Shown here: piece after piece, positions 1,202 to 48,239 of the stretch
How the letters are laid out: every line of letters begins with the position of its first letter
Position numbering within the stretch: position 1 is the first letter of the stretch
Assembly (NCBI GenBank): GCA_964016885.1
Contig: OZ024742.1
Coordinates: 95,480,001-95,544,000 of the forward strand
From: Eledone cirrhosa
Taxonomy: Eukaryota
Direction: 5' to 3'
Length of the DNA stretch: 64,000 nt
Position numbers and translations under genes: made by a program
Notes under the pieces: model-generated
What the model saw: the letters and a program-made list of their open reading frames with translations, nothing else
What the model was told of the DNA's origin: nothing
Databases searched by the model: none

Positions 1202-1855
1202 AGGAGGAGGTTATAGTTCACTTGAAGCATTGTGTAATGAGGTATAAACGTTTGAATATGTATAATAAAGCCAAAACAATGCAGGTATGGACATAGAAAA
1301 AAGAATGCAATTGCAAAAGATATTGTTGACAATTCGTCCTTTACCTTAGATTTATTTTAAACGTCCTTAATTTTCGAGATAATATCTCTTCTTCAGAGGG
1401 AAATAAAGGTCTCAAACCAGCGTTCTAAATATCTTGCCAAGCCATGCTGCCAGGAAATAGTATAGAGTATCTGTTCTATCTCTAATGTCAAAGAGTTAAA
1501 ATTAGGTGGATAAAGAGTAGTCTCCCTTTAAAAGGGGTGTGTTTAGGTTTTTTTTTATTTTTTTATATACATGCCTGTTTAAGTGTGTGGGAGAATGCAT
1601 GAAGGTGTAAGTATGTGAGTGTGTGAGTGTGAGAAGATAAGTCTATTCGTAAATGTGGGGGATAGGTGTTATCTGGTGTTAGAACTGGTTTTGTGTGTGT
1701 ATGTGTGAGAGAGAATAAGTGGAGGTGTAAGCGTGTGTGTGTGTATGGGGTGTGTAAATATGGGGCTAGAAGCCCTATCAGGTTATAAATTGGGTGTTGA
1801 GTTCTAGTCTATTATTGATAGGTGGTTGTGTTTTATCTATAATTAGTGCTTCCTA
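1202..1855 (-). mobile_element. Non-coding PLE-type 3' end carrying a hammerhead (family A)
   Basis: 1202-1420 is the reverse complement of 39638-39856; flanked by (TA)n; contains the HHR at 1365-1399. Confidence 0.6.
1365..1399 (-). ncRNA. Minimal type I hammerhead ribozyme (family A)
   Basis: Reverse complement CCT-CTGAAGA-A-GAGATA t TATCTC-GAAA-AT-TA-AGG; stem I is only 3 bp. Confidence 0.6.
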
Positions 1856-1881
1856 TATGTATATATATATGTATATATATT

Positions 1882-2148
1882 AGTATTACTTCAAAATATT
1901 AATAAATATAGACATTCATGTGATCAAATATATTTTATTATACATATTTCAGAGGTACTGAGCTATTTCTTCAGTCTGCCAAGACTGGAATTGAACCATC
2001 AGCATAGTTGAGGTATGTCAGACATCAATTTATTTTATCTGAAGAGGACGTACTGAAGAAATATCTCAGTACCTCTGAAATATGTATAATAAAATATATT
2101 TGATCACATGAATGTCTATATTTATTAATATATGGAAGTAATATTAAT
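1882..2148. mobile_element. Head-to-head fold-back HHR element (family B)
   Basis: About 95-bp inverted arms (~1882-1975 and ~2052-2148); homologous to 44718-44956. Confidence 0.8.
2032..2095 (+). ncRNA. Type I hammerhead ribozyme (family B)
   Basis: ATTTTAT-CTGAAGA-stem II (GTACTGA.../...TCAGTAC)-GAAA-TATGTA-TA-ATAAAAT; 7-bp stem I. Confidence 0.8.
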
Positions 2149-2188
2149 AACTCCAGAAAACCTCCTTGTTTAGTGCTTCTAATCTATT

Positions 2189-2795
2189 GTACATCTTATG
2201 CTATATACTATGTTTCTAGTTTTGCAGTTAATATGGGGGCTTAGTTTACAGATTATGCATTTCTTATCTATACAGGGAGGTCTTTGAAAAGGGTATGTAT
2301 TACTAATAAGTGTGTTTTTATGGAGGTACCTGGTCTTTCTACTATCTTAATATTTAGTTTAAGTTTATCTAGGGCCCTTCTAAATTTGTAAGCTAACTCA
2401 CCTCTAGGTGAACATTACACTCTGGTATTTATTACTATCATACTATGAGTTTATTCTATTAACCTTATTCCTAGTTCTTTCTATTCTGTTCCAAAATTTG
2501 CTCCTATACAAGGGGCAGGTTCAATTTGTATCATTATTTACCATTTTTCCCCATTTGGTTCTGGCTCCTCTATATACTCTGATTTTATCTCTCTGATTGT
2601 AACCAGAGAACTGCATATGGTGGTTGAAGTGTTGCATGTGTCTCTCTAGTTCTTTGGGTTTGCACATGCGGGACACATTTCTAATCACCCGTACTAAATC
2701 CGCAATCAGTATGTAGATTTTGGTGTGATCCGAAACAGCTGAGTTTCGGTGGATCAGATATTTGGAAGTCATGGGTTTGGCATAATGGGAATGGA
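2189..2795 (-). pseudogene. Penelope-like element, RT C-terminus/linker fragment (inverted 5' part)
   Basis: KPMTSKYLIHRNSAVSD...FSGY, then Cys-rich linker ending CKTRNIVYSIRCT; frameshifted. Confidence 0.75.
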
Positions 2796-44717: not shown

Positions 44718-44956
44718 TATTAATTCAAAATATTAACAAAAATAGACATTCGTGTGATCAAGTATATTTTATTATACATATTTCAGAGGTACTGAGCTAT
44801 CTTCAACAGTACGTCCTCATCAGGTAAAATAAGATGATGCATGGCATACCCTGACTAAGTAGATGGTTAAAATTCAGTCATGGCACCTCTGAAATATGTA
44901 TAATAAAATATACTTGATCACACGAATGTCTATTTTTGTTAATATTTTGAATTAAT
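44718..44956. mobile_element. Family B head-to-head fold-back, HHR at 44766-44830 (-)
   Basis: ~72-bp arms; reverse complement ATTTTAC-CTGATGA-GGACGTACTG..CAGTACCTCT-GAAA-TATGTA-TA-ATAAAAT. Confidence 0.82.
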
Positions 44957-45049
44957 ATATATATACATATTGTATTAAGGATACTATTTATGGTTATTTA
45001 TATACTAAAACCTTTTATAGTTATATATATTTTAAACCCTAAATAGTGA

Positions 45050-46660
45050 AAGACAGTAATATATTGCTACCTTATTACCATATTGATGTCATACTTGCGG
45101 CCCGTAAAACCCTAATCACCTTTGAAGACCAATTATGGACCCGCAAAGATACGCAAAACAACTTCTACATAACCATGGGATCTAGTGACTAGGCGCAGGT
45201 CACTGATTTGGTCGGTCTATATTTACTTAACGAAATCCATAAGGACCTTCCATACCTCAACGGTGGTTTGTACCGCGATGATGCACTTCTACTTATAGAC
45301 TATAAAAAATTCAATATAGAAAGAACGAGAAAACTATTGCACAAAACATTCAAAAGTTATAACCTTATTATTACCATGGACAAAAACACTAAAAACGTTA
45401 ACTTCCTGGACGCCACCCTCTACCTAGACTCCAAGATATATACACCTTTCCATAAACCTAATGAAAAACTCATTTACGTAGATACCAAGTCTAACCAACC
45501 TAGATCAATATTAAACTCTATCTCTAAGGGAGTATCCAATAGAATCTCTAATCTATTCTATGACGTAAACATATTTAGCAAAAACTCGCAGTATTATAAT
45601 CAGGCATTAGCTAGATCAGGCCATAATATAGAGATCGAGTTCCTACCTACAAAAACACATAGCTACAACATTATTTCGCACAATATGTCCATGAGGAAAT
45701 TTAGTAATAAGAATAGCAACCACACACACACTAATACGGAGGATGCCAACAAAAGTAACCCACACCACAGAAATTACCATAGTACCATAAAAGGAAACAA
45801 CTCACCAGACATAAAAAACAAAAATAGAAGAAGAAATAATACATTTTTCAACCCTCCTTTCAATCTAAACGTCTCTACCAACCTACCTAGGGCTTTCTTC
45901 TCACTACTAGATAAACACTTCCCATCTGGCCACAAGTACCATAGCCTTTTAAACAAAAACACTATTAAAATCTCCTACTCTACTACGTCTAACATAGCAT
46001 ACCACATAGCCAGTAGCAATAATAGAAAAATTAATTCTTACTTCCAACAAACTAAATCACAACACACGATAAACCTTCAAAATAACATTATATCAACTAA
46101 CCCCAATAACAATAGAAATAATAGTAATAGCACTAGTGTAAGCAATAACGCTGCGAACGACAACACCCATAACCATAATCCTATAGCTACCATCCAAACT
46201 TCTAATAATAACCGGCAGACATAATAACCGGCAGACTAACATCCAGTATAATTGTAACTGTAGATCAAATAGAACCTGCCCTTTAGATAAAAAATGCTTA
46301 ATCAAGGATATCATATACTCATGCACCGTCACAACTAGCAACTCTTCTGAAACCTATATAACTGCTTCAAAACCAGATACAATTCGCACCTCCACTCTTT
46401 CAAAAAACACAGTCTAGCCAACTCCACCACACTATCTAGCTACATACACTATCTAAAAACTAAAAATAAATATTGTACACTTAAATGGGAAGTGATAGGT
46501 AACGCGACATCGTACAAACCACCTAATAAATTTTGTAACCTCTGTTCACTAGAGACCCATACTATCATCTTCTCAAACCATAACCTCCTTAATAAAAAAT
46601 CAGAAGTGTTCGCGTCTTGCCAGCACCGCTTCCCACACTCCTTCCAAAACTTTAAACCCA
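45050..46660 (+). pseudogene. Penelope-like element RT + C-terminal GIY-YIG (probably Nematis-like), disrupted
   Basis: TMGS..LVGLYLL..GLYRDD, VNFLDATL, FFNPPF, IKISYS, CNCRSNRTCPL..IIYSC, CNLC..LLNKKSE..CQHR; stops and frameshifts; a degenerate HHR at 48129-48177 may mark its 3' end. Confidence 0.88.
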
Positions 46661-48239
46661 ATATATAACAATGTCAGACTTGAACCCGTCACCACCTCTA
46701 GCAACAAACCTCAAGGGCACACCTTACACCACATCTCCACACTCATTGATCCACTTTAACACAAATAGTGACATGCTCCTAGTACCTTTTACCCTAGAGA
46801 TGTCCCCATGTACATCTACTTTTGGTATATTTGCCTTCAATTACTTAGACTACATTATACCACTATATAATTAATGTAAACTTTAAACACTGAATTGGTT
46901 GTGCTAATGTTGTTCTGTGTATGGAGTGCCATCATTGGATAAATGGAAGATTAATTAATTTATTAACATAAAAGAGCTATATAACCTATATGCTGAGTGC
47001 AATGAATTATGTACAAGTGAGGTATGAGTTATACATACATGTATGACTTGATGGTCAGATTAGTGACATTGTAAGTGAGAATTAATCGCTGGTCTACCCT
47101 AGTGATACTTAACTTTACCATGCAATCAGACATGCACTGACCCAGAGCTTACCAGGAGTTATATATAGAAGTGATTCTAATAAAACCCTGCCAGGTTCTG
47201 CGGGTAGACTACACTTACACAGATCATTGATTTGGGGATCTGACTCTTCATGTAGAATATTCAGTTGTGGCACTCTATGATAGAAGGTAATCATCCTAAT
47301 ATGAACACCTTTAGTACTTCTTGATAGACTACACTGTAATTTATACTTAATTTTAGAAACTTTTATAACCTTATATGATAGGGACTCATTTGAGACACCA
47401 TTTAATGTACACTAGGATAATAAATTTAGTTTTAGAAATCAGCTAGTTACCTCCCCTCACGCATTAACTCCCCTTAATCACACACACACTTCCAGAAAAT
47501 AATACGATGTCAATTCTCGCAACAAAAACAACCTGCTCTATAAAATTGGATTAAAGAACAACAAGATGTAATATTCTAACATAATTCATCGAAAATCCAA
47601 TATTGAATCATCGTAGATTATGTGAAGGACATATAATCTATATATTACGTTTCCTGGATTGTGAAAATGGTGTATACGAAAACCATAACATTGTTTTGCT
47701 TCTCATTTATAATATGTTTAATATTTTTAATATGTCTCTACACACAAGCGTCTATATCATACATATAAAAAATACTTTACCAATACAACCCCCATAATAC
47801 TCTTGATTGCCCGCTTAAAGTGCTTGTATTACATATAACACTCTGCCGCACTATAATCTTATATAAACTAGACACACGTGCATGCCACATGTGTAACTAC
47901 TGCATACAATAACTACTTCAAACTATCCTCTTGCTTTATCTTCGTAAACTGCCAATGTTGTATTTTAACTTTAATTTTGTTCTTTGATATGACTTTAATC
48001 TTTGAATGTAAATTGCCATGCTAAATATTATAATGGATGTCAACCCACTGTGCATCAATATATACATATGTTTCTGTATGTCTCTTGTGTTGAAAAGGAG
48101 GTCATGTATGTAACTAATCATTGAAAAATTGCTCCAAAGACACCAAACCCCGGTTTGCAAGAAACAATTGTAAGCGAATGAATGGTTTAAACAGAACTTT
48201 GATTCATGTAATTTCTATATATATATATAGAGAGAGAAA

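Follow-up and report, generated by a model that had tools for sequence, protein, structure and literature searches.

The window analysed here is a 64,000-nucleotide stretch of the Eledone cirrhosa genome (assembly GCA_964016885.1, contig OZ024742.1, positions 95,480,001 to 95,544,000, forward strand), which sits on one contig (C3) of a 3.0-Gb assembly of 1796 contigs, has a GC content of 35% and carries tracts of at least six TA units, (TA)6+, over 5.6% of its length, as compared to 3.7% in the first 400 kb sampled. It contains numerous type I hammerhead ribozyme motifs, and many of its insertions are palindromes or bear an inverted arm. We consider it probable that the window holds the 3' ends of many families of Penelope-like elements (PLEs) together with three tandem hammerhead repeats lacking an open reading frame (ORF), and that all of these likely entered (TA)n through target-primed reverse transcription (TPRT) by PLEs.

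The hammerhead motifs in the window are real. A type I descriptor run on both strands, with 100 block shuffles and non-pairing cores as controls, found 12 motifs with the CUGANGA core, against a shuffled mean of 0.23 (maximum 3), and two with a U3:A8 core (UUGANAA), against 0.49 (or 2 against 0.06 at a stricter setting); the mispaired cores TTGA.GA and CTGA.AA gave no match in the window with the same descriptor, and the motifs recur in multi-copy families. Permitting a long stem II and a bulged stem I raised the number to 17 motifs, three of them with a U3:A8 core, and demanding stem II immediately after the core lowered it to one or two. In an Rfam scan of the window, no hammerhead family stood among the best 150 of 206 matches, most Rfam matches being microRNA models on palindromes and TA tracts. 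The relaxed set comprises 15 of the 17 motifs that the original prediction, made from the sequence of this window, had called intact, plus two that it had not listed (1396, minus strand, and 39663, plus strand); the other two fall outside it through a family-wide 2-bp stem I (39344) and a C-A mismatch in stem I (44823, minus). Four of the six examples it had called degenerate (14916, 23838, 36887 and 48129) are members of multi-copy hammerhead families, while that at 21150 is not a hammerhead and was dropped, the core being absent both there and in other copies of the surrounding repeat, and that at 63746, with no relative among the fetched loci, is probably a false call. Further degenerate or variant copies in the window lie at 865 (minus), 3377, 10886 (minus), 19571 (minus) and 19682 (plus), 32585, 35790, 40329 (plus) and 43889 (minus). 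Of the 17 relaxed motifs, 13 have a (TA)6+ tract no more than 250 nt downstream, as opposed to 25% of random window positions; the claim that nearly all motifs lie in or next to (TA)n thus stands for "next to" and mostly fails for "in", because the link is directional, to the 3' side.

We traced 15 window families through the genome, 11 by DNA and one by protein searches, and B, H and M via loci already fetched; the fetched loci are the 40 best-scoring places per search and so biased to the best matches, and record counts include duplicates. For 11 of the 15, a PLE endonuclease (EN) ORF lies collinear upstream of the hammerhead, either in the window or in further copies, and most window hammerheads accordingly read as 3' ends of ordinary, 5'-truncated PLEs inserted in TA repeats. 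The elements have fixed 3' ends at or close by (TA)n, are truncated at the 5' side and frequently bear an inverted 5' arm. The distance from EN to hammerhead is constant within families: the EN precedes the hammerhead by 292-307 nt in family F (20 of 23 records), 182-219 nt in D (13 of 34) and 377-412 nt in L (15 of 23), and in C and N it is collinear in independent loci.

Six EN-linked families are of the Hydra type by their motifs. Family Hy is represented by a 5'-truncated, frameshifted element (44975..48215, plus) with a YRDD reverse transcriptase (RT), a CxCx5C linker, a GIY-YIG EN and a 3' untranslated region (UTR) of ~1.5 kb, and its hammerhead at 48134 (plus), with the family core CCGAAGA (U4C), is mutated further in this copy. 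The 3' ends of D (16828..16992, plus; hammerhead 16856, bulged stem I), F (18855..19360, minus; hammerhead 18944, U3:A8) and N (19915..20100, plus; hammerhead 19925, 100-nt stem II) carry canonical or U3:A8 family cores, and that of M (40320..40484, plus) a hammerhead-like motif at 40329 with the core CAGAAGA (U4A). D and M recur as palindromic stubs extending over both strands (32443..32650, hammerhead 32585 with a mutated stem III, and 43734..43962, core at 43889 on the minus strand, respectively). Family A, for which only the CxxC..E..CxH portion of the protein was seen, occurs twice, each time with an inverted arm: at 1880..2200 (plus; the arm at the 5' side, hammerhead 2039) and at 44626..44955 (minus; hammerhead 44823).

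The CxCx5C linker, and CxxC and CxH around a conserved E and N, are present in Hydra-type families. One locus (L238) has an 855-aa frame (L238:3693-6257, minus) in which YRDD is followed by YIGST, placing RT together with a GIY-YIG EN at the C-terminus in a single ORF, with RWR at 41 and DKT at 128; DKT is also found in the family M ORF, and long Hydra-type frames are open in other places as well. Genome loci contained no fewer than nine EN families bearing CxCx5C, several of them with 3' UTRs of 0.7-1.5 kb and with 3'-end copies that, from small counts, are put at thousands to tens of thousands per family. Hydra-type 3' ends lie at TA in most loci. With 76,845 first-look candidates, a kind of number that differs from copy number (19 candidates correspond to five insertions in 1.2 Mb for family C), the expansion of these elements appears to be both very large and recent. 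The PLE protein homologue that could be named to species comes from Argonauta hians (38% identity), and a Pfam search with two PLE fragments returned nothing meaningful.

Families B, C and K have a CX2-5CxxC linker before a C-terminal GIY-YIG EN and are Neptune-type by motif, not by tree. One B copy (2190..3571) has its RT thumb and Cx4CxxC linker inverted on the minus strand and its EN and 3' UTR on the plus strand, with a hammerhead at 3377 whose stem I is broken; three 3' fragments follow on the plus strand, at 17001..17619 (EN C-terminus, UTR and hammerhead 17444), 22205..22458 (hammerhead 22266) and 35744..35980 (degenerate core near 35786). Family C, a Neptune-type 3' end in two independent loci, forms a palindromic insertion on both strands (10734..11122) with an intact hammerhead at 10970 (plus) and a degenerate one at 10886 (minus). 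Many of its copies (window position 10930; L079-L088) start just past a CAG near the fold-back of the inverted arm; one might speculate that this is a 3' splice site as in the Penelope of D. virilis, the query start biasing the observation. Family K (37515..39466, plus) retains an EN remnant and a CA-rich 3' UTR of ~1.6 kb, with a hammerhead at 39344. Family L, an autonomous PLE with no clade label, is present as a 3' end with an EN tail, 3' UTR and hammerhead 1396 (1203..1860, minus) and as a 3' stub with hammerhead 39663 (39638..39855, plus). The link for family J (36026..36229, minus; U3:A8 hammerhead 36195), tentatively grouped with the Neptune type, comes from a single copy whose EN C-terminus lies ~1 kb upstream, and family H (21980..22202, plus; hammerhead 22116), with one weak EN link, is probably also a PLE 3' end.

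The three remaining traced families, E, G and I, are ORF-less tandem repeats in which consecutive units each carry a type I hammerhead. Family E (17670..18790, plus) consists here of two 525-bp units plus 73 nt, with hammerheads at 18073 and 18596; G (20360..21120, plus) has units of ~596 bp (period 595-598 bp), an inverted 5' piece and a U3:A8 hammerhead at 20952; I (22575..23804), with units of ~470 bp here and a period of ~470-520 bp overall, has its own variable (TA)n inside the unit and comprises two units on the minus strand (hammerheads 22917 and 23387) and an inverted one on the plus strand (23521). Their longest stop-free frames are 74, 61 and 116 aa, their GC fractions 0.32, 0.40 and 0.36 (E, G and I, respectively), and no EN link without intervening TA was found in 34 (E), 27 (G) and 99 (I) records; the upstream neighbour of a unit is a further unit, an inverted arm or TA, and in no case an ORF. 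Copies of family E are dispersed, with 1334 first-look candidates. Those scored share 97-100% identity, and among 40 scored places 39 pieces end at unit position 71-73, with variable 5' ends and some inverted arms; the 3' end adjoins TA in 11 of 11 distinct loci, and one array has seven full units plus an inverted 5' arm. Arrays of I are satellite-like, reaching at least 19.5 kb on contig C4 (305640000-305659500) and ~14 units on C28. All three families bear PLE insertion marks: they terminate at or close to (TA)n on the 3' side and show truncation and inversion on the 5' side. The hammerheads of E and G, with stem II regions of 49-63 nt, look like atypical PLE-type motifs. In ORF-less as in autonomous families, the 3' end comes in two alternative forms, resembling the PLE "tail" described in the available part of PMC11167929. 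On this pattern, E, G and I are retrozyme-like repeats without a protein of their own, likely copied by the same PLEs. Among the matches listed for family E in sequencing runs there was no RNA run; contigs of two runs, from two organisms, match most of 17600-24000 and are silent on expression.

Five further families complete the set. O (780..900, minus; core 865) and P (23820..23900, minus; core 23880) are stubs whose GAAA is mutated in the window copy, and R (14900..15060, minus) is a degenerate copy with relatives that have a U3:A8 or C3.A8 core and a long stem III; no ORF link was found for these three. Q, absent from the list of the original prediction, is a palindromic insertion on both strands (19431..19822) with two degenerate hammerheads (19571, minus, and 19682, plus). 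S (36390..37045, plus; also at loci L299, L121, L181 and L240) is a young repeat with a U3:A8 hammerhead-like motif at 36890 and no EN link in the fetched copies; GCAA or GCAC replaces GAAA (A13C) in 16 of 16 copies, under a pattern that allowed G plus any three bases, and one subfamily is 97-100% identical to the window copy. Fixed departures from the canonical core are also seen in M, with CAGAAGA in 15 of 19 distinct copies, and in Hy, with CCGAAGA in 7 of 10; in the genome sample introduced below, CAGANGA gave 8 matches as against 0 and 0 in shuffles. Published variants include the U3:A8 core, the U10.1-U11.1 mismatch and U4C in a viroid, and the term "U4A" is absent from the available part of the text (PMC3088659); our literature search, which left subscription journals mostly unreached, returned no natural U4A core and no families with fixed U4A, U4C or A13C cores.

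Of 129 motifs of the sample, 66 have a perfectly palindromic stem III, as do 14 of 19 representatives of its multi-copy clusters, compared with 4 of 75 shuffled matches. Five such stems, which do not fold alone, pair as dimers at a computed -6.6 to -15.2 kcal/mol, in line with the dimeric cleavage that the prediction had named. In family E, stem III occurs in three versions (CTGTACAG, CTGATCAG and CCGATCGG), each a perfect palindrome, which fits pairing between two copies. Across four sequences of E subfamilies, 7 of 26 pairs are changed on both sides, a value reached in 2 of 500 shuffles and inflated by relatedness.

The load extends over the genome. In 120 evenly spaced 10-kb stretches (1.2 Mb; contigs C15-C28 and small contigs lie outside the sample), there were 111 matches to CUGANGA (1, 4 and 6 in shuffled sequence) and 29 to UUGANAA (10, 3 and 15); six control cores remained at background level, so that only C3:G8 and U3:A8 cores are enriched. 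The 140 matches fall into 43 clusters, 20 of them multi-member, including one 26-32-bp minisatellite (L042), whose nine U3:A8 matches were removed before counting. With the 131 kept, the net density is 98 motifs per Mb (bootstrap 74-124), which extrapolates to ~2.9e5 motifs in the genome (2.2-3.7e5), palindromic inserts being counted twice and a motif not being equivalent to an active ribozyme. Gross density is 117 per Mb on contigs C1-4 and 88 on the other sampled contigs. ORF-less tandem families supply 19 of the 131 motifs, among them a family outside the window with a 310-bp period and a CGCG stem III (seven motifs in two loci, L243 and L249). In the sample, 92 of 124 motifs are followed downstream by a (TA)6+ tract within 250 nt, against 15% at random, and 46 of 124 have one upstream, in agreement with (TA)n as the landing site. 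The window itself has 14 motifs under the sample descriptor against 7.0 expected per 64 kb (P ~0.04); at about twice the genome mean, its proposed status as a special hotspot was rejected as weak.

We propose that the PLE EN would nick (TA)n and the RT would copy from the 3' region of the RNA, as suggested by the junctions and by published biochemistry, in which cleavage is AT-rich and internal priming yields an optional tail (PMC11167929, available in part). The RT would usually halt early or invert, so that the hammerhead end would remain with a TA tract on either side. Since truncation affects most copies, the surviving piece would be the hammerhead-bearing terminal repeat, and clusters would build up as new inserts settle in the TA tracts beside older ones. 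E, G and I would be transcribed across tandem units and then cut by dimeric hammerheads via their palindromic stem III; the cut RNA would probably be circularised, and PLE proteins would copy the multimeric or circular RNA in trans, which would give rise to more-than-unit inserts and arrays.

Several observations weigh against this mechanism. Cleavage by the hammerhead is dispensable for PLE insertion in vitro (PMC11167929), families M, Hy and S have spread despite non-canonical cores, and one of nine predicted Xenopus retrozyme dimers cleaved (bioRxiv 10.64898/2026.07.22.740005; both sources in the part available). For E, G and I, cleavage and the RNA side are predictions from sequence, the covariation test in E covers four related sequences, and the long I arrays could stem from unequal crossover instead of rolling-circle copying. 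Moreover, the units have no similarity to autonomous 3' UTRs among the first 220 loci and the window, a comparison that a parent sharing only part of the unit would escape because the loci are the 40 best-scoring places per search.

The strongest competitor holds that everything is debris of PLE pseudo-long terminal repeats (pLTRs), with E, G and I being pLTR-only tandems of unfound autonomous families that multiplied as DNA satellites and have no RNA cycle of their own. That 11 or 12 of the 15 families resolve as PLE ends, that C, J and N seemed ORF-less until 0.4-1.5 kb of flank were read, and that an I array is satellite-like all speak in its favour; the absence of any ORF upstream of E, G and I units, the dispersal of near-identical E copies with fresh TPRT-type ends, and the retention of the hammerhead with compensatory changes in diverged E subfamilies speak against it, and we regard it as rather improbable. 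The view of the original prediction, that the families are for the most part independent ribozyme elements of a non-autonomous kind, gathered in a local community hosted by TA, is considerably less probable still. Its arguments that about 15 or more families are present and that PLEs drive them are upheld, three families (E, G and I) do fit its non-autonomous scheme, and O, P, Q, R and S could add to these; the ORF-less tandem families in the sample also speak for it. Yet only E, G and I are ORF-less among the 15 traced, and with the EN collinear upstream in 11 of them the families are largely the plain PLE pLTR fragments that this view had named as its own refutation; furthermore, the load is genome-wide. 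That chance produced the motifs in DNA rich in AT and in palindromes we consider next to negligible: the relaxed U3:A8 search does have a true background (25 matches against 8-10), nine matches came from a single minisatellite and two calls of the prediction are or probably are false, but the excess over shuffles in window and sample, the background level of the control cores and the recurrence in multi-copy families are not what chance would produce. We therefore retain the reading of PLE 3' ends and PLE-copied tandem repeats. A bolder version, which we put forward tentatively as somewhat short of an even proposition, is that this is the largest animal hammerhead load counted (~3e5, ~100 per Mb), produced by a radiation of TA-targeting PLEs that also mobilises ORF-less retrozymes in trans and includes families spreading with fixed U4A, U4C or A13C cores.

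The window also contains other repeats: a SINE-like (short interspersed element) dispersed repeat of ~190 bp in seven copies (3913-4105, 4480-4669, 33038-33452, 34774-34968, 54060-54254 and 58990-59182); a tRNA-like Rfam match at 58728-58785 (minus, 30 bits), probably a SINE head; a Ty3/gypsy-like remnant at 49134-53181 (minus), between two 450-bp repeats that are 98.7% identical; and RTE-type LINE (long interspersed element) fragments at 1-671, 13377-14540, 28258-29891 and 62490-63320, with short simple-repeat ends and often beside TA tracts.

Many components of this picture are published, namely PLE hammerheads, U3:A8 cores, (TA)n targeting by the Hydra clade and PLE-derived retrozymes, and its value lies in scale and testability. 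Whether PLE transposition needs hammerheads and which enzyme mobilises animal retrozymes are posed as open questions in the available parts of PMC8557442, PMC7229834 and PMC11167929. This genome offers the young ORF-less family E with PLE-type junctions, PLE ORFs that look intact, and matched families whose cores are canonical, U3:A8, U4A, U4C and A13C. If the bolder version is true, it would be the clearest genomic proof of PLE proteins copying retrozyme circles, and the U4A, U4C and A13C families would represent either new active cores or proof from nature that PLEs can move without cleavage.

As to numbers, counts made with other descriptors, in the available parts of the sources, are ~2,000 and 1,300 in Schistosoma, 4,000 in the coelacanth and 9,000 in Xenopus (PMC4209133), and, for Acropora, over 6,000 belonging to 16 families and, for the axolotl, as many as 120,000 (PMC7229834). 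The giant squid paper counts 235 (PMC6962438, in part), the word "ribozyme" is absent from a 2026 repeat annotation of Octopus vulgaris (PMC13282606), and the best 150 Rfam matches of the window include no hammerhead. The load found here thus suggests that standard annotation misses many ribozymes in genomes of the cephalopod type. Our literature search, with most subscription journals outside its reach, found no hammerhead census of an octopus genome and no comparable load. Octopus bimaculoides already has a listed Hydra-clade PLE that bears a hammerhead and prefers (TA)n (Hydra-1_Obim; PMC8557442 supplement, in part).

In their architecture, the motifs share with the minimal type I hammerheads of PLE pLTRs, as described in the available part of PMC4209133, the CUGANGA/GAAA core with an extra base before stem II, the short palindromic stem III, the U3:A8 variant, the many heterogeneous families per genome, mostly as solo truncated copies, and the opposite-strand pairs 100-700 bp apart; unlike those, they have a stem II reaching 50-107 nt, in some families fixed U4A, U4C or A13C cores, and an estimated load of ~2.9e5, obtained with another descriptor. 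The Hydra-type families here share with the Hydra clade of PMC8557442 (in part) the RWK-like and DKT motifs, the CxCx5C linker, the CxxC and CxH around E and N, the 3' hammerhead, with a non-canonical family core in M and Hy, and the insertion in (TA)n; the available part of its list has one cephalopod family, as against at least nine CxCx5C EN families here, and no genome with nine or more Hydra-type families was found described in our literature search. Families E, G and I, for which no parent pLTR was found among the fetched loci, resemble non-LTR retrozymes as presented in the available parts of PMC7229834 and Li 2026 (bioRxiv 10.64898/2026.07.22.740005), where a PLE origin and mobilisation are proposed, in being ORF-less tandem units with one type I hammerhead each, a GC content below 45% and forms from monomers to multimers. 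Their units of 470-596 bp lie above the 150-450 bp of the former and inside the 51-972 bp of the latter, and they differ from the retrozymes described there in their PLE-like atypical hammerheads and in their explicit PLE marks, namely the TA target, the fixed 3' end with an optional tail, and the 5' inversion.

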